Virus record (IMG/VR): IMGVR_UViG_3300023203_000722
Coordinates: 1 to 22,215 of that record
Length of the DNA stretch: 22,215 bases
From: a virus
Direction: 5' to 3' (one strand)
How positions within the stretch are numbered: the stretch's first letter is position 1; every line of letters begins with the position of its first letter. Both the position numbers and the translations under genes were made by a program. Shown here piece by piece: positions 1 to 21,431 of the stretch. Under the pieces are notes generated by a model, which worked only from the letters and a program-made list of their open reading frames with translations, was not told the origin of the DNA and did no database searches.

Positions 1-10
1 TTACCTCCTT
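1..10 (-). promoter_or_regulatory. RBS (AAGGAGGT) overlapping the hub stop codon, for a further gene beyond the left edge
   Basis: The minus strand reads AAGGAGGTAA at 10..1, the same RBS motif used by other genes here. Confidence 0.55.
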
Positions 11-2295
11 TGGACAAAAGCACCTGCACCACTGAAACCCAAGTTTCCCAGGCCCTCCCTGGAATACATGGCCTCTGATCTCAGCCTATTTAATCCAAGT
101 AATTCCTGTTTCATTCGTAGTACAATTGATTTAAACCTTTTAGATGGTATGTTAAGGTCTATATCTGCCCTGAATTCTCCTTTTTCTAGATTTAGCTTAT
201 TGGTCATTGATTTGATTTCATGATTCCCTGAAAGAAGAACATGTGGAACATTTGTTATAATGTAATTAGCAGGGTTTAACTGCACTGTGCCCAGCATATC
301 TAATGTAAAACCAATATATGAGTAAGACCTGGAATCAACTGTATCTTTAGCGTCTTTTTCAGCTTCGGCCTGGGTTGTGGTATTCGTCATGTCTTTATAA
401 TTGACCCATGTCCCATAACGAAGCATACTATCTATATTAACATATCCTGTGCCAGCAGCTCGTTTTTCAGCATAATCAGGAGGATAGTACTTTCTGAATG
501 CACGGTTGCAAATACTGTTATTTCCAGTTCCAATCGTGGGTTTATAGGTGATTCCAGTCACGTCCAGAATATTTAATCCCTGTTTTGCTGTCACAACTCC
601 AGCAGATCCTGAAATCTCTTCAAATATAAAAACATCATCTTTTCGTTCAGCCCCTGGCTCGATGTATCCAGTGTAACCGACCAGTTCACAAACATCTCTG
701 ATGACTTCAATAGGGTACTGTGCATCAGATTCAAGGGTGGTTTGTAACATTACATCAGATCCAATCAATCCAATGTTATCGAACCACATTACTCTTTGTT
801 TAATTGGTCCGGGATGTGTTGGAATGGTTATAGTGTCTACAAACCTTATTTGAGTGATATAATATTCATCAGACGTGGCAGAATTATCAAAAGCATTCTT
901 TAAATTGAATTTAAATTCCTCTGGAATTCCAGATAAATTTAATTCAAAATGTCCAATAACTTTGCCTTCAACACGAGATGAATTAACCGTTATTGTGTAA
1001 TCCAATGCATCATCTGGAGTTTCATTCCCTCGATACATTGTTATAACAATGTTGAATTTGAAAGGATACACAGTAGAATTCCCTTTGGCCATGTAATCGA
1101 ATACAAGATAAGGGTTTTCTGATACTTTCAATGGTTGGGATGAATTACCCCAAATCAGTGCTTCACAATCTTTACTATTGTTTTCTGAACAATTACTCAG
1201 ACTTATGTCCTCATAATACAACATAAGCCCGGGTGGGGGCATACCTATTGATTTATCCTGTTTTTTATCAAATCCAGAAACACCAATACTATTAAAGTCA
1301 TTAATATTGCTCATGTCTTTTAGGAATGCATAGGAACCTTTGTATTTGTAAAATAATGGGAATTCAATACCTGTGGATATGTATTCCATGAATTGCATCA
1401 AATTGCTGAAATTATATCTGTAGGCATTCACGGCCAGGTCCTGGCCAGATGTACCATAACCTATCGCGAAATTCTTAAAAGTAGGTGCACGGTAGAAATC
1501 TGCTTCTCTACCTACACAATCCATTTTTAGCAAATCATCATTTAATGTGAATCCTAATACATAGCCTCCAAAGTCGGGTTTAGCATGCTTTCGATCTTCA
1601 CCCACATAAAAAGTTACAGCGTCCATGAAGTCGAAAATCATCCGTGAATACAAGTTTTCAGGGCATAAAAAGTCTTCTTTGAATGTAACATTTAGTTTAG
1701 CAGTGTTCATCTCAGCAATTGTATTTTTAGTGTATTCTGCAGATTGAGCTTCTAGAGAAGTGGAAATATTAGAACTCTCAGTTGATAAGATGTTAACACG
1801 CATGACTATGAATGATTCAAACCAAACATCACGTTCATAAAAAGAAGCTTCTAAATTATGCGTACCTGCATTTAGCCTATGGCGGCCAAAATCCATCCAT
1901 GCGAAATGATAAGCAGGTGTTTCAACACTTTTAACATCCACCAATTTATCATCAAGTTCTAAACGTAATTGTGGGGGTAGTTGTCCGGCCTGTTTGATGG
2001 CTTTAACCACTCTGACAAAAATTCTGTAATCGCCAGTTTTTTCAAGATATACTTCTTTTGAAATACTTCCTGATTGATAAGAGGAGTATGATGGAAACCC
2101 AAAGATAGGAAATCCATCATAACCACTTTGAGTCATATCTGCAGGTGTGCGGATACAGTTACTTCCAGGGAGGTAATAGATAGCGGTCACATCTTTGGCT
2201 TCAATTTCTGCTCGAAAGTATGGATCTTCATGGATGGTGACGGGATCCACACCATTGAGTAAAGGTATGAAGTTTACTTCTTTCATTCCATTCAC
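1..2295 (-). CDS. Baseplate hub / Tal-like tail protein with inserted beta-sandwich (CBM-like) domains, ~764 aa
   Basis: Second gene downstream of the tape measure. Hub-like segments (FGGYVLG...MDCVGR; EVIRDVCELVGY; LRYG...TTQAEAEKDA; FTLDMLGTVQLNP) are interrupted by aromatic beta-rich inserts. TAA at 1-3. Start is GTG 2295 or ATG 2286. Confidence 0.65.
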   Translation of the reverse strand: MNGMKEVNFIPLLNGVDPVTIHEDPYFRAEIEAKDVTAIYYLPGSNCIRTPADMTQSGYDGFPIFGFPSYSSYQSGSISKEVYLEKTGDYRIFVRVVKAIKQAGQLPPQLRLELDDKLVDVKSVETPAYHFAWMDFGRHRLNAGTHNLEASFYERDVWFESFIVMRVNILSTESSNISTSLEAQSAEYTKNTIAEMNTAKLNVTFKEDFLCPENLYSRMIFDFMDAVTFYVGEDRKHAKPDFGGYVLGFTLNDDLLKMDCVGREADFYRAPTFKNFAIGYGTSGQDLAVNAYRYNFSNLMQFMEYISTGIEFPLFYKYKGSYAFLKDMSNINDFNSIGVSGFDKKQDKSIGMPPPGLMLYYEDISLSNCSENNSKDCEALIWGNSSQPLKVSENPYLVFDYMAKGNSTVYPFKFNIVITMYRGNETPDDALDYTITVNSSRVEGKVIGHFELNLSGIPEEFKFNLKNAFDNSATSDEYYITQIRFVDTITIPTHPGPIKQRVMWFDNIGLIGSDVMLQTTLESDAQYPIEVIRDVCELVGYTGYIEPGAERKDDVFIFEEISGSAGVVTAKQGLNILDVTGITYKPTIGTGNNSICNRAFRKYYPPDYAEKRAAGTGYVNIDSMLRYGTWVNYKDMTNTTTQAEAEKDAKDTVDSRSYSYIGFTLDMLGTVQLNPANYIITNVPHVLLSGNHEIKSMTNKLNLEKGEFRADIDLNIPSKRFKSIVLRMKQELLGLNRLRSEAMYSREGLGNLGFSGAGAFVQRR

Positions 2296-2302
2296 ACATC
2301 CT

Positions 2303-4189
2303 TTAGATGATTCGTATCCTTTGATTTACTGGGTTTAACCACTCCAGGGCCAATTTGGAATAATGATTCTGGTTAGAGGATGGTAATGTGTTGTCATAAA
2401 ATCCTATACCTGTTAAACTGGTTGCAGGTATTTTGTTTGATTTTATGGTGGTTGGATACTTTTGTAAAATCATTGTACGCAAATTCTGTGCAGGGTTAGG
2501 GTTTGCACAGGTTCCACTACCTTTATCCCAGAACAAAGCATAATGAGTGTCTGACATTGAAATAGATTGATCATCTGCTGTTATTTCTAATGGAGTCCCA
2601 TCATGGTAACAACATGAGAATTTAGGATATGTTAAATCATTATATTCATGTTTGATGTACACAAATGGTTCACTACGTCGTAAAATCCATTTAGTCCTAT
2701 TAATGGCCAGTATTAGTTCTTCAGGAGTTTTGTTCAATAATTTAATGAATGAAATAGGTCCAATGTCCACGTTAAAGAATTTTTCAAAAGAAGCACCATT
2801 TATTCTGTGTATTTCAATACCTGTGGATGTGGGAATTATTTGAATTAAATCATTGTAAAACTTGCATTTGTCTACTTTCAAACTTTCTTCTAGGTTATGT
2901 ATTTCATTCCATTCGTTCTGAGGATTATTATTTGAATATAACCTTGGTGAACCATTGAAAATTGCCATTGGGTCACTCGCACTGTTTTGGAATGAATTGT
3001 CTGATTCTCCATTTTTATGCAAATATGAAGAACCACGACTCCCCAAACCGGTTGAAGCATTTCTTCCAGTTACAGGAATTTTAGCAACACTTTCAAGAAC
3101 CTGGGCCTGTGTTTTGTATAATTTAATTCTGTCTGTGTATACAGTGTGATTCACTGGTTCATGACTATGGTAAGTGAAACCTACAGTTAAACCCGTCATT
3201 CTACTGAGACTACAAGGGCCTTTCCAGAAGAAATCCCATTCGGAAGTTGTGGAATTCCACAACCAGGCTGTGATTAATCCATCTTCACCAACTAAAACTT
3301 TCCATTTGTGGAGTTTATTGTCATTTGAGACTAATACTTTAACCAAAGGATCGGTAAAGGGTTTAACAAACCGCATATCTCTAGAATTACTCCCCACATC
3401 ATGGATTATTAAAAAGGTATCTTGCCATCCTTCCTGGTCTAACCATTGTCCAGGTCTTAAAACAAAATGATGATTGTGCCCATCATAATAAGGTGCAGTA
3501 CTGGAATCTGGAACTTCTAAATCAAATTCTACATAGAATGGTGCATCAAATGACTGTTTGGATTGGATACTTCTGGCACCCCAACAGGGCATCCCTGGGA
3601 TAATAGCGGTTTGTACTCCACTCATCCCAAGTTTACCTCCAGATACTGTGTGACTTCCACCGGTCATGTTCCACATGGTGGCAGACCATTTGGATGTGTC
3701 AAGGGTTGTGCCTGGAAAATCATCTTCTAACAATACTAATTCTTCGGTTAAATCATAACCATGTTTTAATGGTGTTCCAGCGTAGGGGCTTGTAGTATAA
3801 TCCATTTCAAGGAATACATCCATGGCATTGTTAATTAATTCAACTGTTAATGTTGCTTTAGCTTCAAACTGGTTGATATTATCAATATCCACGTTGCGGA
3901 TGAGGTACCATCCTTTATGGTTTAATCGAACATTATCGTACTCTTCAGGACGGCTAGCTGTTGCATTTATCCACACAGGACCCCAATCTTTCTGTTTAGT
4001 GCTCCTGATAGTTATGCCTCCAGATTCTTCAGTACCTCCTCGTGTTATCAGGCCACGGAGTTGGTTTATTTTCCAGATGGGACCGGCGATAGTGAACTTT
4101 TCCTTACCATCCATGACTCCGTAATCATTGTTTTTTTCGTAGTAGAATCCTCTATCGAAAACTACAGGTCCGATTATACAAGTATTCAT
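2303..4189 (-). CDS. Distal tail (Dit)-like protein with inserted lectin/ConA-like domain, ~628 aa
   Basis: Immediately follows the tape measure. Internal LLEDDFPGTTLDTSKW resembles the start of GH16/LamG-type beta-sandwiches. Start moved from 4225 to ATG 4189, which follows GGGTGT. Confidence 0.6.
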   Translation of the reverse strand: MNTCIIGPVVFDRGFYYEKNNDYGVMDGKEKFTIAGPIWKINQLRGLITRGGTEESGGITIRSTKQKDWGPVWINATASRPEEYDNVRLNHKGWYLIRNVDIDNINQFEAKATLTVELINNAMDVFLEMDYTTSPYAGTPLKHGYDLTEELVLLEDDFPGTTLDTSKWSATMWNMTGGSHTVSGGKLGMSGVQTAIIPGMPCWGARSIQSKQSFDAPFYVEFDLEVPDSSTAPYYDGHNHHFVLRPGQWLDQEGWQDTFLIIHDVGSNSRDMRFVKPFTDPLVKVLVSNDNKLHKWKVLVGEDGLITAWLWNSTTSEWDFFWKGPCSLSRMTGLTVGFTYHSHEPVNHTVYTDRIKLYKTQAQVLESVAKIPVTGRNASTGLGSRGSSYLHKNGESDNSFQNSASDPMAIFNGSPRLYSNNNPQNEWNEIHNLEESLKVDKCKFYNDLIQIIPTSTGIEIHRINGASFEKFFNVDIGPISFIKLLNKTPEELILAINRTKWILRRSEPFVYIKHEYNDLTYPKFSCCYHDGTPLEITADDQSISMSDTHYALFWDKGSGTCANPNPAQNLRTMILQKYPTTIKSNKIPATSLTGIGFYDNTLPSSNQNHYSKLALEWLNPVNQRIRII

Positions 4190-4205
4190 GCATACACCCT
4201 TTTTT

Positions 4206-7200
4206 TTAGTCGAATAATTCGTCAACTACTCCGTTTAACTCCTCATGCACCACGTTTTTAATTTCCTTGATCAGACCATCTTTGTCATAGATTGGGCCGG
4301 TAATGTTAAACACGAATTGCAGCACTCTTTTAACAGGGTTTGCAATTCCAAAGCCACCAGCACCACTACCTGGTGGAGGTGACCAGGTTCCACGGTTTTG
4401 GAAGGCTGTGGTATCGAATGGTATTCCGTTTACCATGGCCCATACGTGTGGTATGCCTGTGGATCCCCAGGTTCCATGGGCCATATAGGCTGATAATCCC
4501 ATTGCCTGGGCCAGGGCTATGATAATCTGAGCGCCATCAAAACAATTGAATCGACGATCTCTTAAAGCCTGAGCATTACTTTTCTGATCCCCATAGTAGA
4601 ATTGATATGCTGTTCTTCCAATGATTGAACTAGCCAGGGCTGCGAAAGCTGATAAGCTTCCTCCATTTTTGAGTGTTGAAAGTGAAAGACTAACTCCTCC
4701 AATGTTCATCTTCCAACCATAAACGGTTGAGAGGATCCTGTCAATCCAGTTGTCACTGAAATCCCATCCACCAGCATAACAGTTACCATCATAATAGCAG
4801 GTATCATCATTTTCAGGGGCAGGACCTGCACCATATATTCTATTCTGGGTTGACCTGAAAACCATAGGTGCGATACCAGCAAAGAGACCATCATTTGAAA
4901 GTCCTCCACTGTAATTCAACACACTTATGTCTGGTCCTCCCGCAGCACCGGGCCAGGTTGTACCCCCATAGCCACCAGCACCTCCGGAACCACCGCCACC
5001 TCCGGTGATGAAGTCCCAGAATCCTTTCAGATGATCGTATAAAGTTTTGATAGGACCCCATACTCCATCCCTTATAGCAACTGCAGCTGCTAGCATACCA
5101 TTTTTCATCTGATTCCAGGCAGACAGTATCATACCCACATAAGGAGATACAGCTCCCCAGATCTGATTCATCACATTCCAGATGGTCATGAACACATTAT
5201 TCCAGATCCATTGTGTGGTGGATTGTATGGTGGACCAGGTGGATCCTATGAAACTGGCCAGGATGTTAATCACACCCATGATGACCTGGATACCGAGCAT
5301 CAGGCCCTGGGCTGCGAATATGAAAATGTTCATGAGCATGGTGCTAAATGTCTGACCAGCTGCATCACCAAAGAGAAGAGTTACAATCATGGTCAAAGGA
5401 TTATATTGAGCTATGAACTGGAACATGGCCATAAGGATACCATACCAATCAATACCAGAAGCCCAAAGAGTAATAGCTTCCAGTAAACCACCACCACCAT
5501 CACCCCCAAAGATGTAACCTATTAACACACCTATCGGGTTGAATTGGATTAACCACTCACCAATAGCCATGAAAAGACCAATCCAATCAACATTAACGAG
5601 CCATGACATGAATTGACCAATGATATCTCCACCAGCACTGAAGATTCCCATGAGACTGTTCCAAAAGAACACCCCTAAACCTATCCAGTCAATATTTACA
5701 ATAGCATTCCAGATCATACCTCCAAGATTCTGAAGACCCGGAATAATACCCTGCCATTCACCATCCTTGAAGAAAGCACCGACCAGAGCATCCCAAGCAC
5801 CAGTTAAGGAAGTGAAAATACTGTATAAAAATTGACCAACACTAACCAGAGTATTCCAGTACCCAATTAGTACCTGCCAGGCACCATTCAAAATCAATCC
5901 ACCGATCCAAGACAGGGCCGATCCAATAGGTGATAAAACACCCCAAAGGTACCCTGCAACTCCTCTTAATATTCCTATAAAGTTCATCAGAGCATTTAAG
6001 GCAGGGAAAAGTATGCTCCTTATACCTATCACAAATTGGTTTGCCACCGTGTCACCAAAGAGCAACCGGATCAGCATAGTAACTGGATTATAATTAGCGA
6101 AGAAAATGATAATTTGGCTAAGAATTCCATACAGAATCCCTTCTAAACTTACATTTTCAAGACCACCAAATAAGGCATTCCAGATGTATTGGCCCAATCC
6201 TTTAACACTGTTGTAGATAGCTGTAACAAATCCAGTAGCAACAGCTCCCCAATCAATACTCAGTAACCAGTTCCAAAGCATCCCAAAAGCATTCTGGAAA
6301 CCTTGAATCAAACCAACAAAACGCCCTTCACTATCAAAGAATGCTCCAAAAAAGGCTTTAATTGCATTGCCTGCCTGACTTATAATCCATACAAGTTTAT
6401 TGAAATTTAGAATTATGAAGAGTAAAGGATTCACAAAAATGGTCAATAAACCTAGTACCTGGCCCAGAGGATTATTCTGGAAGAAACTCCAAACCCGGGC
6501 AACAGCATTACCTAACAATCCAAATAAGTCAATAATGGCCCGGACAATATCAAAACCTTCTGTAGGAGGGAATAATTGATTCCATAATCCTTGGAAGTAT
6601 GAAATTAGTGGTGAGAAGAATTGTAATAAACCATACCAAGCTTCTTTAATCCCATTAATAGTAGCCACAACATGAGGATTATTCACGAAAGCAGCCCACA
6701 ACCTCATGACACCAGACCTAATGGCCTCAATCATTGTGGGGATGTCTTTCCACCAATGGAAATATTCTCCTATTTTATAGATTATGACTGCAGCAGCTAT
6801 ACCAGCTGCGATGAATGGCAATAATGGAGCCAATGCGCTCCAAATTGCCCCTGCAAGCAATATGAATCCTCCAGACGTGCTTATTGCTGTCACTTCAAGA
6901 CCGAAAAGAGGAAGTAACATGTTTATAAAGTTTAGAGTTGCGGCACTTGCTGCAGGGATGATGGTGGAAGTTAATATTATTCCAAACCCTATTAGTGCAA
7001 TGCTTGCTATGCCTATTATAATTCCTAACTGAACCCATCCTGGTAATGCAGCCCAACTACTAGATAACCATCCAATTACATTTTTAGCACCATAGGCAAG
7101 GTCTGCCAGGGCCATGGTAATGGCATAAATCAATGGAGCAGCAGGTATCAGGAAAGCTCCGAGGAGCTGGCCACCAGCAATAGTTAAGACTTGGACAGCA

Positions 7201-8069
7201 TCATCAAGACTATTGATTTCTTTTGCCATCTGGGTTAAACTACGCTGTTCCAGGACCTGATTGAGTGCAGCTATGATTCCTTTTTTATCTTCTTTATCAC
7301 CACTCCACAAGCCTGTGGCTTTAAGTGCATCAGCTGTAACTCCAATCTCACTTAGTCTGCGTTCCCATCCTTGGCCCTGATCTATTAAATCTTTGAGAGC
7401 TAGGGCAGAGTCCCGGGCCGATCTTCCTTCCATGGCCATTGCACTAGAAAATACTGCACTGGTTTCTATGAAATCTTTAGCTTCACTTGCATTCAGTTTG
7501 TAGATACGAGCCATCTTGGCAACTTCCATGCCGACCTGGTTCATGTCAGTTTTGCGGTAGATTGTTTGGAGTCTGGCCATCTCGTTGGTGTACGCGGTTA
7601 GTTGTGAGGAGTCCCATCCCATGCCTCTGGCCATTCCTGCGATTTGTCCTTGGGCATTGACTGCACTGTTGGCAACATTCATTATTTGCATGGCTAGGTC
7701 CATACCTAATGTGATGGCTAGCATTCCTGCTGTAGCCTTTAGCAGGTTCATTGCATTGTTAAGGCCGTGCATCTTTGATTGTGCTGTAGTTGCATTGTTC
7801 CCGGCGTTACTGGTTGATTTTGCTGTGTTTTCTAGTTCTTTGCCGGTTTTGCTGGTGGTTTGGCTGAGGTTGTTCATGGTCTGATTCAGACCATCACTAT
7901 TCTGCTTTAGCTTTGAAACCTCAGAGCTGGATCCACTTGCTCCTTTCTGGAGGCCATTTAATTCAGATTGTAAGGATGTTGCTTTTGATTTAGCACCGCT
8001 TAACCCCTGAGTAAAATTGGTAATATCCAGAGTTAGGAATGATTTAATTTCTCGTCCACCGAAAGCCAT
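4206..8069 (-). CDS. Tail tape measure protein with C-terminal transglutaminase-like (Pei-type) cysteine protease domain, ~1287 aa
   Basis: N-terminal coiled coil, Ala/Gly-rich helical body, long hydrophobic segments, Trp-periodic repeats. NCFD / PHVW / FDTT triad near the C-terminus. ATG 8069 follows GGAG; ORF track start is 8084. Confidence 0.92.
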   Translation of the reverse strand: MAFGGREIKSFLTLDITNFTQGLSGAKSKATSLQSELNGLQKGASGSSSEVSKLKQNSDGLNQTMNNLSQTTSKTGKELENTAKSTSNAGNNATTAQSKMHGLNNAMNLLKATAGMLAITLGMDLAMQIMNVANSAVNAQGQIAGMARGMGWDSSQLTAYTNEMARLQTIYRKTDMNQVGMEVAKMARIYKLNASEAKDFIETSAVFSSAMAMEGRSARDSALALKDLIDQGQGWERRLSEIGVTADALKATGLWSGDKEDKKGIIAALNQVLEQRSLTQMAKEINSLDDAVQVLTIAGGQLLGAFLIPAAPLIYAITMALADLAYGAKNVIGWLSSSWAALPGWVQLGIIIGIASIALIGFGIILTSTIIPAASAATLNFINMLLPLFGLEVTAISTSGGFILLAGAIWSALAPLLPFIAAGIAAAVIIYKIGEYFHWWKDIPTMIEAIRSGVMRLWAAFVNNPHVVATINGIKEAWYGLLQFFSPLISYFQGLWNQLFPPTEGFDIVRAIIDLFGLLGNAVARVWSFFQNNPLGQVLGLLTIFVNPLLFIILNFNKLVWIISQAGNAIKAFFGAFFDSEGRFVGLIQGFQNAFGMLWNWLLSIDWGAVATGFVTAIYNSVKGLGQYIWNALFGGLENVSLEGILYGILSQIIIFFANYNPVTMLIRLLFGDTVANQFVIGIRSILFPALNALMNFIGILRGVAGYLWGVLSPIGSALSWIGGLILNGAWQVLIGYWNTLVSVGQFLYSIFTSLTGAWDALVGAFFKDGEWQGIIPGLQNLGGMIWNAIVNIDWIGLGVFFWNSLMGIFSAGGDIIGQFMSWLVNVDWIGLFMAIGEWLIQFNPIGVLIGYIFGGDGGGGLLEAITLWASGIDWYGILMAMFQFIAQYNPLTMIVTLLFGDAAGQTFSTMLMNIFIFAAQGLMLGIQVIMGVINILASFIGSTWSTIQSTTQWIWNNVFMTIWNVMNQIWGAVSPYVGMILSAWNQMKNGMLAAAVAIRDGVWGPIKTLYDHLKGFWDFITGGGGGSGGAGGYGGTTWPGAAGGPDISVLNYSGGLSNDGLFAGIAPMVFRSTQNRIYGAGPAPENDDTCYYDGNCYAGGWDFSDNWIDRILSTVYGWKMNIGGVSLSLSTLKNGGSLSAFAALASSIIGRTAYQFYYGDQKSNAQALRDRRFNCFDGAQIIIALAQAMGLSAYMAHGTWGSTGIPHVWAMVNGIPFDTTAFQNRGTWSPPPGSGAGGFGIANPVKRVLQFVFNITGPIYDKDGLIKEIKNVVHEELNGVVDELFD
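5360..6350 (-). repeat. Internal protein-level repeats in the tape measure (IDWxG and YNPxTMxxxLLFGD units)
   Basis: GAFFDSEGRFVGLIQGFQNAFGMLWNWLLSIDWG versus GAFFKDGEWQGIIPGLQNLGGMIWNAIVNIDWIG; NYNPVTMLIRLLFGD versus QYNPLTMIVTLLFGD. Confidence 0.75.
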
Positions 8070-8088
8070 GATAAAAGACTCCATTAAG

Positions 8089-8168: not shown

Positions 8169-8360
8169 ATGATAAAAATGGGGAATAATATACCAACAAG
8201 CGTGAGAATACCATCTGAATTTAAAGATGATATTGAATTATTAGCAAAACATAGGGGAAAATCTGTCTCTAAAACAATCATCACAGCAATAGAATATTAC
8301 ATAGCTCACGAATATGACCTAATACGCATGTTAAAACTTAAAAAACTTGAAGAGGTATAA
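8169..8360 (+). CDS. Ribbon-helix-helix (CopG/Arc/MetJ-like) DNA-binding protein
   Basis: PTSVRIPSEFKDDIELLAKHRGKSVSKTIITAIEYY has the strand-helix-G-x-S-helix RHH pattern. Start is 8169 or 8178. Confidence 0.85.
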   Translation: MIKMGNNIPTSVRIPSEFKDDIELLAKHRGKSVSKTIITAIEYYIAHEYDLIRMLKLKKLEEV

Positions 8361-8362
8361 AA

Positions 8363-9211
8363 ATGGGGGATTATACAACTAAAAAAAATTTAAAGAAATA
8401 TTTGAAGAAAAGATTAGGATCTGATTTAGGGGGAGCAAGTAAAGAAATTCGTGAACTCTTTGGAGCAAGCATGATGTCTGTTAGTAAAAACCAAAAAGCA
8501 AATTTGTTTGCTCTCCGTTTACGTACAGAAATCAAACCACAACTAGATAATGGGAGTATAACTTCTATTGAACAATTAGATGAAATAATTAATGAACAAT
8601 TCTCAACCTTACGACAAGTCATGCAATGTCCTCCTCTTAAGATCAAGATTTATAAACCTTCAACCAAAGCAATTGTGTCTGCCCATCGTGGAACTAAAAA
8701 AGCCGGAGGAGCTTTAGCAGGGGGATTACTTTTAGGCCCAGTAGGGGCAATTGCAGGGTATGCACTTGCTAGCGGTGATGGGAGCACAACTAAAGAAAGT
8801 ATCATTAACAACAATAAAACTTTTGAAAATGCTCGTATTGCGATATATGATAATAAACTTCAAATTTACAACAAAATGGTGTGCCATGAAGGCACTATCC
8901 TTTTTAATGACATTAACTCCATTGATTGGAATGAAAGAGGTCGTGTATTTCGACTTAAAACAAATGGGTATGGTACTATTGTGATTTCAAGTAAAAACAC
9001 ATCTCTTAATTCTTTGTTTGATGAGTTGATGTTAAAATTCAACGAATTTGAGCCCCAAGTATCCAACAAGGAAACTGAAGCCCCCAAACCCAAACTAAGT
9101 AATCATGACCCTTTTGACACTCTTAAAAAGCTTCATGAATTACATGTTTCTGGAATACTCACTGAAGAAGAGTATAAATCCAAAAAAGCTCAATTATTAA
9201 ATCAAATTTGA
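8363..9211 (+). CDS. SHOCT-domain protein with glycine zipper and possible PH-like domain, 282 aa
   Basis: C-terminal DPFDTLKKLHELHVSGILTEEEYKSKKAQLL matches SHOCT. GGALAGGLLLGPVGAIAG is a glycine zipper. RBS GAGGT just upstream; starts 2 nt after the RHH stop. Confidence 0.8.
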   Translation: MGDYTTKKNLKKYLKKRLGSDLGGASKEIRELFGASMMSVSKNQKANLFALRLRTEIKPQLDNGSITSIEQLDEIINEQFSTLRQVMQCPPLKIKIYKPSTKAIVSAHRGTKKAGGALAGGLLLGPVGAIAGYALASGDGSTTKESIINNNKTFENARIAIYDNKLQIYNKMVCHEGTILFNDINSIDWNERGRVFRLKTNGYGTIVISSKNTSLNSLFDELMLKFNEFEPQVSNKETEAPKPKLSNHDPFDTLKKLHELHVSGILTEEEYKSKKAQLLNQI

Positions 9212-9288
9212 TTATAAATCTAAACTGCTAATTTTTTATAGTTAATGTGAAAGTAAAGTATTATAACTATTAATGGGGAGGCTTTAAA

Positions 9289-9738
9289 ATGGATTTTAAA
9301 TGGATTATTGGAATAGCAATAGCAATCGTTTTGATAGTAAGTGTTGGTGTTTTTGTAAGTGGATCTATGACTACCACCACGTCATCCAATCCAAGTAAGA
9401 TATATGCTGAAGTGATAAACGAAAATTCATCCAGTGGAGAGATTTACAGTCTTAAAATTAAATTAACTGCTTCTGATTTGCCAGAAGGTCAAAAAAATTA
9501 CTTTAAAGTTGTTGGTAATTTAAATGGAACTCCTGCAGATGAATTATGGTTCATGGTCCCAGAAGGTAGTAAACTGGCCAATGGTATGATTATCACAATT
9601 AACGAGCCTAATGACCTAAGACAATATGATAGTTTCACAATCTACCTTTACGACAAGCCGGACCGTGATGACGAAGGCAGAGCTATTGAACGTAAACCTA
9701 TAACGAATATTACTGTGAACAATACGATTCACATTTAA
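9289..9738 (+). CDS. Membrane-anchored or secreted protein of unknown function, 149 aa
   Basis: N-terminal hydrophobic helix WIIGIAIAIVLIVSVGVFV, Ser/Thr linker, beta-rich body. RBS GGGGAGG at 9275-9281. Confidence 0.75.
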   Translation: MDFKWIIGIAIAIVLIVSVGVFVSGSMTTTTSSNPSKIYAEVINENSSSGEIYSLKIKLTASDLPEGQKNYFKVVGNLNGTPADELWFMVPEGSKLANGMIITINEPNDLRQYDSFTIYLYDKPDRDDEGRAIERKPITNITVNNTIHI

Positions 9739-9741
9739 TAT

Positions 9742-9758
9742 TTCTTTTTTATTTTTTT
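9742..9758 (+). terminator. Oligo-T archaeal terminator for the plus-strand cassette
   Basis: TTCTTTTTTATTTTTTT directly after the stop at 9738, at the convergent junction with the gp10-like gene. Confidence 0.55.
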
Positions 9759-11032: not shown

Positions 11033-12124
11033 TTATATGGTTCCTATATGTAAGTTTGCTAGTTCAGAAATTACTTCAACAGTCATGAAACTGGCCAGGC
11101 TTTCATCATTGATTTTGAACTCAGTTTCGATTGATTTACGCTCATCACCAGACTGTGGACTGTCACATTTAGTAATAGTCACATCTGGTATTAGGATGGC
11201 TGTTTTATGGAATACGTCAGTTGATGTAACAGTTTCGATTTTGGGTCCGATGGATTCTATGAGGATCTGTTTCCTGAGTGGTTCTGATGATACTTTAGTC
11301 CCGTTAGTTGTTCCAGATTCATATTCGGTCTGGATCCATTTGGTCTGTTCTGTCCAGGGTATGGTGAATCCTCCCTCGGATTCTCTTATGCCCATGTTTT
11401 TGGTTTCAGTACCGAAATCATCTCCACCACATGGTTCACTTTCGGCGTTGTTGTTTACTTTTACATTGCCTTCTATTACACATGGGAAGGCATATTGTGC
11501 TTTGTTTGCTTCGGTTAATGTTACACCTACAGGTGCATAGTACAGAACAGTCTGGCCTGCTTCTATTTTGACTTTTTTAGTAGGTACTACTCGGGCAGGG
11601 TTGGGTTGTTTGAATTGGGGATAGTCACTGACAAATTTAGGGGCTATGCTCATGGGTTCATCGTTTTTGAATTTAACCTCTAGTTCATTGAGCATGCAAT
11701 TATCATAGACGTATGCATCATTTGCAGTCTTAGCATAACCATTATACAATGTACAGAGTGGTGGATCGGATGGGTTTACAACATCAACTGCAAAGACGTA
11801 TTTTTTGGCCTTGGTGGCTCCAGCTATTGCGGGGTCTGGGCCTGTCACATGTCCAAAGAGTAAATACCAGTAGTCTTCCCATCCTTGTTGGTATCGTGCT
11901 TTATCTTCGTAACCTGGACTACTGGCTGCTTTTTTACGGTACATTCCCATGGTTAGACTGGATCCACCTGTGTGGCCTTTATCTTCTTCGTGTTCGATTT
12001 CTTTTTCAGGTTCGAACTCGGTTCCTGGGATCATTATTAGTGGTTGTTCAGGGGCTGTCTTACCCGTGGGTTTGATCCCCAGGGACCAGTAGTGATATGC
12101 TAGGTTAGGTGCTATAACTCCCAT
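11033..12124 (-). CDS. Major tail tube protein, 363 aa
   Basis: Position, size, acidic beta-rich composition, and motifs WSLGIKP..., AYVYDNCMLNELEVKF and AILIPDV typical of siphoviral tube proteins. TAAATG coupling to the upstream gene. Confidence 0.75.
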   Translation of the reverse strand: MGVIAPNLAYHYWSLGIKPTGKTAPEQPLIMIPGTEFEPEKEIEHEEDKGHTGGSSLTMGMYRKKAASSPGYEDKARYQQGWEDYWYLLFGHVTGPDPAIAGATKAKKYVFAVDVVNPSDPPLCTLYNGYAKTANDAYVYDNCMLNELEVKFKNDEPMSIAPKFVSDYPQFKQPNPARVVPTKKVKIEAGQTVLYYAPVGVTLTEANKAQYAFPCVIEGNVKVNNNAESEPCGGDDFGTETKNMGIRESEGGFTIPWTEQTKWIQTEYESGTTNGTKVSSEPLRKQILIESIGPKIETVTSTDVFHKTAILIPDVTITKCDSPQSGDERKSIETEFKINDESLASFMTVEVISELANLHIGTI

Positions 12125-16550: not shown

Positions 16551-17339
16551 TTAAATAAGAGTTAAATCAGCGTATTTTTGAGATTCTTCTAAATAGGACT
16601 GGTATTCCTTAGTAGCGTTATCTTTCTCAGGAACGAGTTCACAATGGCCATTTGGGTGGTCATATTCCCATTTGTCCATGGGTCTTGGTGGTAGCCGGGC
16701 CTTGGCATAGCATTTCTCACAAGTACGTCGTCCAGCAACAACCCAGTAATATAACATGTTTTTACCATATCTCATCTTCTGAGCTGCTCTCTTGATTTTT
16801 TGCTTAGCAAACTGTGCATTGAACTTAACAAAATTCTTAGTACGCCTTATGGCCCTGTTGAAATTAGCTTTAAGATTGAAATCTTTGGGTTCACCCATAC
16901 CTGCCTTGAATGATGCGGCCTTGGTGGCCACGTCATCTTTTAACTGATTGATAGTTGCTTTAGCACTTAAACTAAGAGCATTTAAGGTTGGTTTAAGGTC
17001 CAGGTCAAGTTTGACCTTGGGGATGACTTTTTCGTGTATGTTGAATTCTTTCAGTACAGTTATACGGTGGTCTTCGACTATTTTAGTCAGTTCGGTTTTA
17101 CTGGTTTCTGCTAGTTTCTTCCCGGCTTTGGTGACAGCATCAGGGAATTTTTCAAGGACATAATCAACTGTTTTATGCTCAAAATCTGTGTAAAGTTTAG
17201 CAAAAATAACAAATAAAGCGATAAACATTAACTGTTCGTCCATGTCCATATCTTCAACATCTGGATCATCTGGTTGGAATGTTTCATTATCCCATCCAAG
17301 GAGCTCCTCATTCAGGGGTACTTCAGTCACCATCATCAT
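16551..17339 (-). CDS. Head morphogenesis protein, SPP1 gp7 / MuF-like
   Basis: Follows the portal. C-terminal YYWVVAGRRTCEKC...HPNGHC resembles the CxxC...HPNCRC motif. Confidence 0.75.
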   Translation of the reverse strand: MMMVTEVPLNEELLGWDNETFQPDDPDVEDMDMDEQLMFIALFVIFAKLYTDFEHKTVDYVLEKFPDAVTKAGKKLAETSKTELTKIVEDHRITVLKEFNIHEKVIPKVKLDLDLKPTLNALSLSAKATINQLKDDVATKAASFKAGMGEPKDFNLKANFNRAIRRTKNFVKFNAQFAKQKIKRAAQKMRYGKNMLYYWVVAGRRTCEKCYAKARLPPRPMDKWEYDHPNGHCELVPEKDNATKEYQSYLEESQKYADLTLI

Positions 17340-18561
17340 TCACCCCTTCGTCTGTTTCCTCTTCTGATGCTTTTTTACCTTTATTTTCGTCAGTTTCTAG
17401 GTATCCTGATTTCTTATCTTTGTCCTTGGGATGGAAGTTAATCCAGACATTTCCTTTTTTACCTGCTAGTTCTAGTTCAGGTGTGAATAATTCATTTTCA
17501 ATATATTTTTTCAACCATTCCCTGTTGTATTCAAGGAATACAACTCTTCCACTGGTTTCACTATCCATTAATACTTCCGCTGTGGCCCTGTTACTTCCTT
17601 CTGTATCAAATAGTGCATGTGGTGTTGAAAGTCCATCGAAAATTTCATTCTTAAAATCCTGTTTATATTTTGGAATATCTGGAAGCTGACTTGTACCAAT
17701 CATTTCAGCTTCAAGCCCGAAAGGGAGAACCACAACTCCTTTTTTATGGTAATCAGTAGTGGCCTCCACAACCGCCTCCCGGGACTTTTTAGTTAAACGT
17801 TTACCTGGGGCATCCTTGTTCCCCATAGTCACAATTAAAATATTGGAATTTTTGAAAACAGTCTTCGGCATCAAATCAGATAGGACCCTACGATAGTATA
17901 CCGGATCCAGGATGTCCATCACAATGGATCTGCCCTTACCTTTTAACTCCATGTATTTGGCATTAATGATCTCTCCTGGCTGGAATGGTACAGTCCATTC
18001 TTCTAATTTTTCTTCCAGTTCCTCGAACTTTTTAGCCAGCCATCCTTTATTGGTTTCTTTGTTTCTTTGTGTTAGTTGTTTGAATCCGGTTACTTTACCA
18101 TATTCATCGTAAACCTTTTTGATTCGATAATTTTCAGCATCAAAGGCTAATATTCGGATGTGGATTCTATTTTCAATAATAATCTTATTCATGAATACCT
18201 CACCATCAACCTGACCCGCCCAGAGTAAATCCCTCATGACCTGGTTAATATCCCAGTCCGTGCTCTTACAACGTTCAATTATATAATCCACTGCGTCTTG
18301 GTTATCTCCTTCTATTACAAAGTTAGATATTGTTTTAGTGATGTTATCATTGATGATACCCTTCACTATGGGGTCGTTGGCTGCGAAACGGCAGTTCTTT
18401 ATTGTTCTTTTGACCTTGAAAGGTACCGTGTCAATAAAATCTATTGCATCTGTATCATTAGTGGTAGTGTCATCAGTGTCTATCCCTGTTTCTTCTATCG
18501 CGTTGGGTTCCGCATTCCGTAAAATGAAATTTTTGTAGTTGATCCTGTCTAATAATCCCAT
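17323..18561 (-). CDS. Portal protein, 412 aa
   Basis: Directly after terminase large; size; helical pattern (DLLWAGQVDGEVF; NEIFDGLSTPHALF; WLKKYIENELFTPEL). Confidence 0.8.
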   Translation of the reverse strand: MGLLDRINYKNFILRNAEPNAIEETGIDTDDTTTNDTDAIDFIDTVPFKVKRTIKNCRFAANDPIVKGIINDNITKTISNFVIEGDNQDAVDYIIERCKSTDWDINQVMRDLLWAGQVDGEVFMNKIIIENRIHIRILAFDAENYRIKKVYDEYGKVTGFKQLTQRNKETNKGWLAKKFEELEEKLEEWTVPFQPGEIINAKYMELKGKGRSIVMDILDPVYYRRVLSDLMPKTVFKNSNILIVTMGNKDAPGKRLTKKSREAVVEATTDYHKKGVVVLPFGLEAEMIGTSQLPDIPKYKQDFKNEIFDGLSTPHALFDTEGSNRATAEVLMDSETSGRVVFLEYNREWLKKYIENELFTPELELAGKKGNVWINFHPKDKDKKSGYLETDENKGKKASEEETDEGVNDDGD

Positions 18562-18578
18562 ATACTCCCACCACTCTT

Positions 18579-19793
18579 TTAGTAGACGTAAGCGTCTTCT
18601 TCTTCAATTTCCTGTTTTTTGTATTTGCTTAAAGGTCCAAGAACACCGTAAACATCATAGCCCATTGCATCCATGGCATGGTTCTTAAAATCAACAGGTT
18701 TATCTAAAATATTCCCATCCTTATCCTTCTGATACTTGTAATTTTTAATTTCTCTTTTAGTTTCAACACAACCAGGGCTTATGTGGATTTGTACACTGCG
18801 ATTAGTTTCCAGTCGTGCAGCAACATCTTTAACTCCCGGAACAGCATCAAAACCTTGCTGGCAAAATTCTTGAATCCTATCAGGTTCGGCAGCATCACAA
18901 TAAACTTTATCTAATTTTCCAGGTGTCAGTCCCTCATCATTTAAAACTGCAATAATCTCATCAATAAACTCGGAATTAGTTAAACGCCTTTTGTAAACTT
19001 CACGGACAATATAAGGTTCACCATCATACCAGCCAATTAATAAGAAACAGGAAGGATTATTATAACCGAAATCAACACCAGCAGTCCATTTCTCAACACC
19101 ACTGACCGGGGGCTGTTCATCCCAATTTTCAAAAACAATATTCGATAACTTACCCCACTTACCCAGAGTGTACTTATAATAAAGCTCAATATCTATCTCT
19201 TTTAACTCCTCATACTCTTTAACATACTCTTCTGGAAGAAATGGGTTCTCAGTATAATGAAAATGAAGAATAGTGCCTCTTTTTTGGCGGTGAAAATAAT
19301 TATAAATCCAATGATCTGTACCTTCAGGAGTGACCGTTAACAAGAACTGTCCAAAACTTTTCTTACTAACTATTCCACGGATACGTTTTTCAAGTTCTGC
19401 AAACACGGCAAAAGATATTTCCTCAGCCTGTTCCACCCAAACAAAATCAAGGTTAAGACTTCGAATCTTCTTAAGATCATCCAAGGGTTTAAAAAGAATC
19501 GTGGATCCAGTAGGTAACCGTATGATACCCTCATTCTTATTCTCATAAAAAGGAATACCATAATTTTCCAATGCTTCCCGGAGTTCAAGCCAACTAGTAG
19601 CCTTCAATGCAGGAAGAGTATCACGAAAAACACCAATACGAGCATTCTTATGCTCAAGACCATATTTTAAAACCTTATGAACAGCATAAATAGTTTTACC
19701 AGAACCAGCACTACCCTCAATCAATAACTTACGATCAGTCCGGTTGATGTTCTTCTTCTGCTTCCGGCTCAACCTCCACATTATCCTCTTCAT
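18579..19793 (-). CDS. terL: Terminase large subunit (PBSX-type)
   Basis: Walker A EGSAGSGKT, Walker B-like DFVWVEQAEE, coupling motif LLTVTP, RNase H-like acidic residues GVDFG, YCDAAEP and NHAMDAMGY. RBS GGGGTG. Confidence 0.95.
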   Translation of the reverse strand: MKRIMWRLSRKQKKNINRTDRKLLIEGSAGSGKTIYAVHKVLKYGLEHKNARIGVFRDTLPALKATSWLELREALENYGIPFYENKNEGIIRLPTGSTILFKPLDDLKKIRSLNLDFVWVEQAEEISFAVFAELEKRIRGIVSKKSFGQFLLTVTPEGTDHWIYNYFHRQKRGTILHFHYTENPFLPEEYVKEYEELKEIDIELYYKYTLGKWGKLSNIVFENWDEQPPVSGVEKWTAGVDFGYNNPSCFLLIGWYDGEPYIVREVYKRRLTNSEFIDEIIAVLNDEGLTPGKLDKVYCDAAEPDRIQEFCQQGFDAVPGVKDVAARLETNRSVQIHISPGCVETKREIKNYKYQKDKDGNILDKPVDFKNHAMDAMGYDVYGVLGPLSKYKKQEIEEEDAYVY

Positions 19794-20450: not shown

Positions 20451-21431
20451 TTATCTAAATAAGAAAGGTTGATGTTTTTTCATAGCGTGTAACGATTTTT
20501 TGTTTGAAACTGTATAGTATGGATTTGCAGGGTAGTTAGATCCCTGTATTCCTTTAAAAAAACGTTCAATAGTACCAATTTCTTCATCTTCTAATCCGTA
20601 GGCAGTAGTCAGGATTCTTTTATCTTTGAGAAGAGAAGTATCTAATAAATCTTCGATATTTGATCGGTTGTTATATAAGTCCAATCCTAAAAAATAAACT
20701 TTCTCAGATTCTTCAATGAATTTATTAGCTTTATCAATAGTATTTAGTTCCTTAGTTTCATGAATTAACTTAATTCCTTCACTTAAGCTTAAAAGAGTTT
20801 TAGTTTCAATTTTTTCCCCATAATTTCGTCCTACCCCCCAGTCTCCTTCCCACGGTAAACTATCTAGTCTACCATATATATGAACTATTTGAAAGTTTTT
20901 CATAATAGATGCGGCATCTTTAAATGAATTTATCCGATCATATCCTTCCAATGGGCCAATCAAAAAAGTCTCAAGGGATCTATCATAATTATATGATATA
21001 ACTCTAATATTCTCAAAAATTTCTTCAAAATTGGGTCCATAAAGCGTTTCTACAAGGTATGTGTACCAATCATCAATTTCATAGATTTTATTTACATCAT
21101 TGTAGTCTTCTGGTTTGAATAATCGTGGGGTTGATTCACTTTGTGAAATTATGTCTAAAATGGCTATTTTTCCAATTTTTGTGAAATTTAAATTTTCTTT
21201 ATTTCTCTCTAAAAAAGAATCAATTGATGGGGCTTTAGAAATTTCAAATTTATGGGCAAAATCTAAAATTAATTCTTTAGGACATCCCAACTCCTTTACC
21301 CAACCGCTGTCATTTTTTACCATTTCGCGTAAAGAAGAGATAATTTTTGTTCTTAAACCCTTTCCAACAGGATAGCCATATGGTGCACTTGCCCCTGCAC
21401 CTAAAACTAGAGTAATAGGTGATTCTTTCAT
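20451..21431 (-). CDS. SIR2-like (SIR2_2-type) domain protein, 326 aa
   Basis: LVLGAGAS NAD-binding loop, ISYNYD, VHIYG and YFLG motifs in sirtuin order. Visibly more AT-rich than the structural genes. Confidence 0.85.
   Translation of the reverse strand: MKESPITLVLGAGASAPYGYPVGKGLRTKIISSLREMVKNDSGWVKELGCPKELILDFAHKFEISKAPSIDSFLERNKENLNFTKIGKIAILDIISQSESTPRLFKPEDYNDVNKIYEIDDWYTYLVETLYGPNFEEIFENIRVISYNYDRSLETFLIGPLEGYDRINSFKDAASIMKNFQIVHIYGRLDSLPWEGDWGVGRNYGEKIETKTLLSLSEGIKLIHETKELNTIDKANKFIEESEKVYFLGLDLYNNRSNIEDLLDTSLLKDKRILTTAYGLEDEEIGTIERFFKGIQGSNYPANPYYTVSNKKSLHAMKKHQPFLFR

Follow-up and report, generated by a model that had tools for sequence, protein, structure and literature searches.

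A predicted transglutaminase-like Cys-His-Asp domain in the tape measure protein of a Methanobacterium provirus, a candidate pseudomurein peptidase for virus entry

Some bacteriophages carry wall hydrolases in their tails and use them at entry, among them Pb2 of T5, the tape measure protein (TMP) of mycobacteriophage TM4, and Tal of the lactococcal phages Tuc2009 and TP901-1. On the archaeal side, the nearest characterised enzymes are PeiW (prophage psiM100) and PeiP (phage psiM2) of MEROPS family C71, whose defining reaction is hydrolysis of the epsilon-Ala-Lys isopeptide bond of pseudomurein. The Pei proteins are Cys-His-Asp pseudomurein endoisopeptidases that require reducing conditions and divalent cations (PMC2989375). 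They are free egress endolysins of ~300 aa, and PeiW and PeiP carry N-terminal pseudomurein-binding repeats (PMBRs). In a 2024 review of how archaeal viruses enter and leave their hosts, pseudomurein enzymes appear solely under egress (PMC10791045). Here, we analyze a domain in the TMP encoded by IMG/VR record IMGVR_UViG_3300023203_000722, positions 1 to 22,215 (the window, meaning this whole stretch of 22,215 nucleotides), which IMG/VR rates as a provirus fragment, 39% complete. A sequence-only reading of this DNA had proposed that the TMP is fused to a PeiW/PeiP-like domain.

Like PeiW and PeiP, the TMP domain combines a predicted transglutaminase-like fold, a Cys-His-Asp triad, Yx[FY]YYN and NCxD motifs, and an origin in a virus of Methanobacteria. 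Unlike them, it is embedded at the C-terminus of a 1292-aa protein, lacks PMBRs, has an extra subdomain with a Cys pair, and falls in a separate clade. Judging from these comparisons, the domain is probably an active Cys-His-Asp peptidase that locally opens pseudomurein on entry, with a Pei-type endolysin serving egress. We also lean, by a little, towards a broader view, that such domains form a distinct monophyletic family of virion-delivered pseudomurein peptidases, carried in TMPs of 1,100–4,200 aa (some with two cores). On this view, they would be the first entry enzymes with wall-degrading activity to be described from an archaeal virus, and they may act from the outside on intact cells and cleave a bond other than that cut by PeiW and PeiP. 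We found no report of a TMP fused to such a domain in the searchable literature, although it may be annotated in the compendium of Medvedeva et al. 2023 or in the MSTV1 supplements.

The domain, its limits and its predicted fold

The TMP gene is a single open frame (Table 1) in which residue n starts at position 8084-3(n-1), and the translation contains the peptide quoted in the sequence-only reading. Both Gly/Pro-rich linkers seen around the domain are in place, and the second is followed by a 46-residue tail. The extent given for the domain, 4370–4660, held in part: a domain is present there, but the module is larger, and a conserved N-terminal subdomain with a Cys pair extends it to ~4350–4817. 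The two cysteines of this subdomain, C1096 and C1102, are nearly invariant in alignment A1 and invariant in alignment A4; together with the putative nucleophile C1181, they are the only cysteines among the 1292 residues. The catalytic core matches phrog_38386 (1.5e-16), which PHROG labels as being of "unknown function".

The numbering of the proposed triad, Cys1181, His1213 and Asp1224, and its codon coordinates were exact, and all three residues are invariant in A1. A single-sequence AlphaFold2 (AF2) prediction of aa 1063–1292 gave a pLDDT of 37.8 and was replaced by a fold based on A2, a 19-row alignment of diverse homologues. The resulting model of aa 1090–1245 has a pLDDT of 83.3 and a pTM of 0.72, with the Cys-pair subdomain (aa 1090–1140) forming strands and a helix at pLDDT ~65–82; few structural matches extend over this part. 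The placement of the triad residues in the model favours the sequence-only reading, with Cys92 at the N-terminus of helix 92–105 and the His and Asp on or beside adjacent strands (His124 in strand 122–129, Asp135 just past strand 132–134), all three in regions of pLDDT 93–96. As judged from the secondary structure of the AF2 model only, this is the canonical papain/transglutaminase arrangement, and the domain as modelled is a transglutaminase-like Cys-His-Asp cysteine peptidase fold. The MAFFT alignment A3, in which the slice of PhiF3 ORF27 and the Asp of PeiP were misplaced, was left out of the conclusions.

The rest of the protein behaves as a tape measure. It matches the PHROG tape-measure families phrog_167 (3e-13), phrog_58, phrog_1272 and phrog_4704; it is homologous to the annotated TMPs of MSTV1 and vir075, and one relative carries PF10145. 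Its gene lies between a tail protein gene (11033–12124) and two large genes, in an order shared with Drs3, PhiF3 and MSTV1, so that family match and gene position both identify a tail tape measure. Charged residues are very scarce in the hydrophobic cluster at 6768–7166, and further hydrophobic segments occur at aa 540–562, 645–663 and 917–948 (Kyte-Doolittle, 19-residue window, at least 1.8). These segments are consistent with membrane insertion. As a separate observation, positions 6513–6971, in the hydrophobic, Trp-rich middle of the TMP, fail to align with the M. formicicum relative (1341 aa versus 1292 aa), which suggests variation in the TMP, and hence in tail length, among near-identical proviruses.

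Relation to Pei enzymes and cellular transglutaminase-like proteins

We compared the model with 48,161 PDB chains using VIA-align. PeiW (8jx4) ranked first with a Z of 11.3 (rmsd 2.5, 104 aa, 22% identity), followed by PeiP (8z4f, Z 10.7), LapG (9.7) and TglA (9.1); the PeiW and PeiP matches cover model residues 52–155. The top Foldseek matches in the PDB were 3isr, PeiP, a TGase and PeiW, and all matches from both programs have transglutaminase-like or papain-like folds. Furthermore, a Foldseek search of BFVD at E ≤ 1e-3 returned only ORF31 of Drs3 (its TMP), the entry A0A6B9J578_2 and PeiP. The comparison with PeiW and PeiP that the sequence-only reading had suggested thus yielded the best VIA-align matches and some of the top Foldseek matches.

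Sequence comparisons point the same way. Searched against 177,635 PDB sequences at E ≤ 0.01, the A2 profile found only PeiW (1e-3) and PeiP (1.5e-3). BLASTP aligned the domain with the endolysin of L004, a provirus on a Methanobacterium formicicum assembly, at 35% identity over 65 aa (E 2e-8), with the Cys and His aligned. An hhalign comparison of A2 with an alignment of PeiP, two endolysins and three cellular PMBR-transglutaminase proteins gave a probability of 97.5% and an E of 5.4e-12; the five proteins of that target alignment that were scanned score 54–105 bits with PF01841. By these measures, the similarity to Pei and PMBR-transglutaminase proteins is far above chance. Homology within the transglutaminase-like superfamily is found both by profile-profile comparison and by fold, and the Pei hallmark of a Cys-His-Asp triad on a transglutaminase-like fold is seen in the AF2 model, in the top rank of PeiW and PeiP, and in the invariant triad.

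Which proteins outside the TMPs stand closest to the domain? By the family profile, the best non-TMP relatives are cellular PMBR proteins at 44–57 bits, versus 32 bits for the provirus endolysin, and the domain scores nearer to these PMBR-linked transglutaminase-like proteins than to endolysins. In M. formicicum, such cellular relatives carry two to three PMBR repeats plus Transglut_core and score above the C71 cut-off. Outside the TMPs, the domain is thus closest to proteins with a physical link to pseudomurein. Genes for such PMBR plus Transglut_core proteins include those at L012 and L014 in M. formicicum. Like the TMP domain, these proteins have the catalytic motifs and the triad; unlike it, they are chromosomal, occur in almost all Methanobacteria genomes searched (147 of 151), are fused to PMBRs and do not belong to a virion protein. 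The TMP itself has no match to PMBR (PF09373) at E ≤ 1, in agreement with the sequence-only reading, which had seen no such repeats. PMBRs are not universal in Pei-like proteins, as homologues without them are present in M. smithii (PMC2989375).

Because the transglutaminase-like fold holds true proteases, such as LapG, whose Z of 9.7 is near those of the Pei enzymes, the domain could also be an active cysteine protease with a protein target. It might, for instance, process its own TMP or other tail proteins while the virion assembles or ejects its DNA, or cleave a protein of the host surface or membrane. Its lack of PMBRs and its clade apart from Pei would fit such a protease, and in some phages the TMP C-terminus undergoes proteolytic processing (lambda gpH and T5 Pb2). 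We nevertheless regard this as unlikely, given that, at the sequence level, the domain is related only to proteins of Methanobacteria that are directed at the wall or bound to it, namely, the Pei endolysins and the PMBR-linked proteins.

Acyl transfer, with a transglutaminase or transpeptidase joining the tail tip to wall peptides or virion proteins by cross-links, appears more improbable still. Pseudomurein peptides are not known to offer a Gln donor, the nearest characterised enzymes (PeiW and PeiP) act by hydrolysis, and anchoring would leave the passage of a thick sacculus unsolved. On the other hand, the same fold and triad do cross-link in bacterial and animal transglutaminases, a TGase (4xz7) and TG2/TG3 are among the structure matches, and the cellular PMBR-linked homologues could be wall cross-linkers themselves.

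Conservation and distribution of the TMP-borne family

A HMMER scan of 1.84 billion representative proteins returned 311 clusters at E ≤ 1e-3 and 183 at E ≤ 1e-10. Among the 150 matches listed, most are proteins of 1,000–4,300 aa with the match ~50–60 residues before the C-terminus, and the shorter ones look like gene fragments. All retrieved sequences were re-scored with the A2 profile to count conservation and position. The triad columns hold C, H and D in every one of the 296 TMP-borne copies. Of these copies, 250 lie in proteins of at least 900 aa, always at the extreme C-terminus, and in the 237 long homologues scored, the median distance between the end of the profile envelope and the C-terminus is 4 residues. 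The sub-threshold Pfam scores (below) could be taken as the mark of a former enzyme that now serves as a non-catalytic wall-binding element or structural tail-tip plug. This is the least probable of the alternatives, as it is contradicted by a triad that all 296 copies retain, in lineages with identities as low as ~35% and together with the YxFYY and NCxDGA motifs; such conservation is unexpected after the loss of catalysis.

In a tree of 100 sequences over 93 columns, a single branch (SH-aLRT 82; the tree is unrooted and the support modest) sets the TMP-borne domains apart, and the endolysins are intermixed with cellular proteins. The TMP-borne domains are, on this sequence tree, a clade of their own, apart from Pei.

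Two further observations concern the architecture of these proteins. Two tandem transglutaminase-like cores are present in 22 homologous TMPs (P0050, P0034, P0028, P0041 and 18 others). The TMPs that carry the domain can exceed 4,200 aa, as in P0088 (4234 aa, L028:10001-22705) and P0136 (4289 aa), and P0165 has 3807 aa; at the usual tape measure scaling of ~1.5 Å per residue, TMPs of more than 4,200 aa would imply tails of ~0.6 µm. P0088 lies on a 62-kb contig with normal terminase–portal–capsid–tube–TMP synteny, and two of the longest TMPs (4,234 and 2,252 aa) show this same order, as does the window.

Among named viruses, homologous domains near the C-terminus (33–44% identity) occur in the TMPs of Drs3 (ORF31), PhiF3 (ORF21), MSTV1, vir075 and vir249, whose TMP bodies are highly divergent from that of the window and whose records leave the domain unannotated. 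Drs3 ORF31 (MH674343.1, L005:5473-9684) is labelled "prominin" in GenBank and BFVD, yet it sits at the TMP position of the tail module; its C-terminal domain is 44% identical to that of the window. PhiF3 ORF21 is labelled "hypothetical" in GenBank.

Is the domain tied to hosts with pseudomurein? An equal frequency in viruses of pseudomurein-free hosts, which the sequence-only reading had named as evidence against itself, was not seen; the TMP-borne domain was found only in viruses and proviruses of Methanobacteria (taken here as the class holding M. formicicum). The A2 profile has matches in 147 of 151 sampled genomes of this class, in two tiers. The upper one (116–231 bits, 14 genomes) consists mostly of open reading frames (ORFs) of 1,200–1,720 aa, which are proviral TMPs, and the lower one (~50–64 bits) of cellular proteins, several per genome. 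A tblastn search of 50,697 phage and archaeal-virus records with three divergent domain queries retrieved only the TMPs of Drs3, PhiF3, MSTV1, vir075 and vir249, together with PeiP, and all homologues whose source names an organism come from Methanobacterium, Methanobrevibacter or Methanobacteriales. A scan of viral contigs with the single domain gave three near-identical loci only, and a scan of genome contigs with alignment A6 matched 24 stretches, none of which was confirmed.

We also ran a degenerate DNA pattern, FNCxDGA...G[LF], over one genome per species for 185,579 species and obtained 11 matches. Seven are real, and four of the seven bear Methanobacteria-lineage labels (two Methanobacteriaceae, one Methanobrevibacter and one Methanobacteriota). 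The tblastn search of phage records, the BFVD fold search and this pattern scan showed no TMP-borne domain in a bona fide host without pseudomurein. One would not expect a general protease for TMP maturation to follow one wall chemistry in this way, and the confinement of the clade to viruses of pseudomurein hosts argues further against a protein target.

Four of the 11 pattern matches (Methanosarcinales, Pseudomonadota, Prevotella and Thermoplasmatales) were rejected; they have no profile match and are attributed to chance, with ~5 such matches expected by estimate. The three other real matches, in metagenome-assembled genomes (MAGs) labelled as bacterial, proved not to be bacterial. The "Clostridia" match lies on a 49-kb contig (CALLZZ010000172.1, L054/L061-L063) with archaeal flanking genes (NreA, a split GuaA and an archaeal-type methyltransferase) and a LeuA 89–90% identical to those of three genomes of M. 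formicicum's class. Two contigs of 3 kb and 5.6 kb, from bins labelled Bacteroidales and Synergistaceae (PWRF01000004.1, L060, and JBFXIQ010000081.1, L050, respectively), carry the other two matches and were reassigned on TMP similarity: the TMPs have 41% end-to-end identity with the PhiF3 TMP or a Methanobacteriaceae provirus TMP as best match. The three contigs are mis-binned Methanobacteria chromosome with a provirus or TMP fragments of Methanobacteria viruses. A PMBR search of the three MAGs gave no match, an uninformative result in that many Pei-like endolysins lack it. Such binning errors in public MAGs could mislead host assignment.

Proposed role at entry and the tail-module setting

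The C-terminal region of the TMP is 99–100% identical to proteins named Methanobacterium formicicum, and the window DNA is ~95% identical to provirus L004, with a variable island and a single indel as the exceptions. The host is therefore an organism with a pseudomurein wall. The provirus is of siphovirus type and belongs to Methanobacterium (formicicum-type); megablast against the phage collection gave no match for the whole window, nor for the L062 contig.

A lytic-type domain in a tail protein is accompanied by a distinct endolysin elsewhere in the relatives L004, Drs3 and PhiF3. The L004 provirus encodes a 300-aa PMBR plus Transglut_core endolysin (L004:21327-22229) after four more genes downstream of the TMP, a position that the window stops short of, and the annotations of Drs3 and PhiF3 also list an endolysin apart from the TMP. 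For MSTV1, a PeiW-like endolysin has been reported (PMC11375127). The L004 endolysin and ORF35 of Drs3, a lytic virus, are 83% identical, whereas the TMP domains of the two viruses share just 44%; at the sequence level, this difference points to exchange of the lysis module between lineages.

By analogy, a TMP domain plus a separate endolysin matches the entry-lysin plus endolysin layout of bacteriophages. T5 Pb2, TM4 TMP and Tuc2009/TP901-1 Tal likewise place a lytic domain in the tail protein that exits first, next to a separate endolysin and hydrophobic TMP segments. Their domains have lysozyme/transglycosylase, M23 or Rpf-like folds that act on murein; here, by contrast, the domain would be a transglutaminase-like cysteine peptidase of an archaeal virus, acting on pseudomurein.

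Could the domain, then, open the wall from the tail tip? TMP C-termini are located at the tail tip and are the first to leave. A peptidase domain ~50 residues from the TMP C-terminus would sit at this tip and would leave the tail first upon receptor triggering. Once expelled, it might cleave the peptide cross-links of the host pseudomurein sacculus locally, and the hydrophobic central part of the TMP could then pass through the gap, insert in the membrane and conduct the DNA. Egress would instead rely on the Pei-type endolysin, which bears PMBRs and whose gene lies downstream of the tail genes.

Several points weigh against a wall peptidase of this kind. The Peptidase_C71 (PF12386) cut-off of 22 bits is reached neither by the whole protein (13.7) nor by the isolated domain (16.8–17.7), the match spans only profile positions 20–79 of 149, and one of 19 family members matches at E < 0.01. 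The Transglut_core (PF01841) cut-off of 23 bits is likewise missed (whole protein 16.7, isolated domain 19.6–20.7), with 11 of 19 relatives matching at E < 0.01 and several homologous TMPs having a precomputed PF01841 match. By its sequence, the domain is thus placed as a divergent member of the transglutaminase-like superfamily and, by the Pfam rule, not as a member of C71. The proposal of a PeiW/PeiP-like triad domain stands as to fold, triad and the top rank of PeiW and PeiP among 48,161 chains, with the qualification that the domain is below the C71 cut-off and in its own clade. The Z margin of PeiW and PeiP over LapG is only 1–1.6, and with this margin and the separate clade, substrate specificity cannot be confidently transferred from Pei. 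The TMP of psiM2, which has a pseudomurein host, lacks the domain, so the domain is common without being required by every such virus. Furthermore, three copies of a folded domain of ~150 aa would have to fit the tail lumen or tip. Finally, catalysis, the pseudomurein substrate, the cleaved bond, the presence of the domain in virions and the sequence of steps at entry are all inferred.

The domain nevertheless offers a concrete, widespread and testable candidate for how tailed archaeal viruses pass the thick pseudomurein sacculus of Methanobacteria, and cultured systems are at hand (Drs3 on M. formicicum and MSTV1 on M. smithii). If the proposal is right, the bacteriophage principle of separate entry and exit enzymes would extend to an archaeal wall polymer with its own chemistry. 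If such domains were active from the outside on intact cells, they would form a new pool of pseudomurein-lytic enzymes, with possible uses in the laboratory lysis of methanogens and in anti-methanogen applications that now rely on PeiW, PeiP and PeiR.

Table 1. Features of the TMP, its C-terminal module and the surrounding morphogenesis genes in the window.
Feature	Position	Strand	Basis or remark
TMP gene P0001, 1292 aa, single open frame	4206..8084	-	PHROG tape-measure matches and synteny
Strongly hydrophobic, membrane-span-like cluster, aa 307-327, 346-382, 406-439	6768..7166	-	Kyte-Doolittle
Gly-rich linker 1, aa 1029-1052	4929..5000	-	translation
N-terminal subdomain of module, aa 1090-1140, Cys pair C1096/C1102 and AGGWDF motif	4665..4817	-	
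Predicted transglutaminase-like catalytic core, aa 1141-1235, YxFYY and NCxDGA motifs	4380..4664	-	
Cys1181, predicted nucleophile	4542..4544	-	invariant in both A1 and A2; aligned to the NCTD Cys of PeiW/PeiP
His1213, predicted general base	4446..4448	-	invariant; aligns with the GH motif of endolysins and PMBR proteins
Asp1224, predicted third triad residue	4413..4415	-	invariant; after model strand 132-134
Gly/Pro linker 2, aa 1235-1246, SPPPGSGAGGFG	4347..4382	-	translation
C-terminal tape-measure tail, 46 aa, aa 1247-1292	4209..4346	-	kept after the domain in the family alignment
Terminase large subunit, start of morphogenesis module	18579..19793	-	Pfam Terminase_3 2.8e-27
Portal gene, after terminase	17323..18561	-	phrog_9232
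363-aa tail protein	11033..12124	-	phrog_290 "minor tail protein" 3.7e-10
640-aa protein directly downstream of TMP	2303..4225	-	tail role by position only
Second large downstream protein, truncated by window end, 764 aa visible	1..2295	-	tail role by position only

The head-to-tail morphogenesis module lies entirely on the minus strand and comprises the terminase, the portal, the tail protein, the TMP and the two large genes (Table 1). From its position in the module, the 363-aa product is likely the tail tube, and MSTV1 has a putative tail tube protein at the same place. The 640-aa product has no Pfam or PHROG match, and its place corresponds to that of the 628-aa gene after the TMP in L004; the truncated product at the window end is the counterpart of a 761-aa gene there.

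Two stretches outside this module may hold accessory genes. The island at 8356–9751, between the small upstream genes and the TMP, is on the opposite (+) strand and encodes a 282-aa SHOCT-domain protein (ORF 8363-9211) and a 149-aa protein (ORF 9289-9738). In this part of the window, the island alone interrupts the alignment with the otherwise ~95% identical M. formicicum provirus, which has five other small genes at this position (DUF2188, MJ0788, DUF2283, DUF8108_N and Zn-ribbon). The site has the look of a hot spot for accessory genes. A 326-aa ORF that lies upstream of the terminase genes (20451-21431, minus strand) has a weak, sub-cut-off match to SIR2_2 (E 0.005) and could be a defence-type accessory gene.

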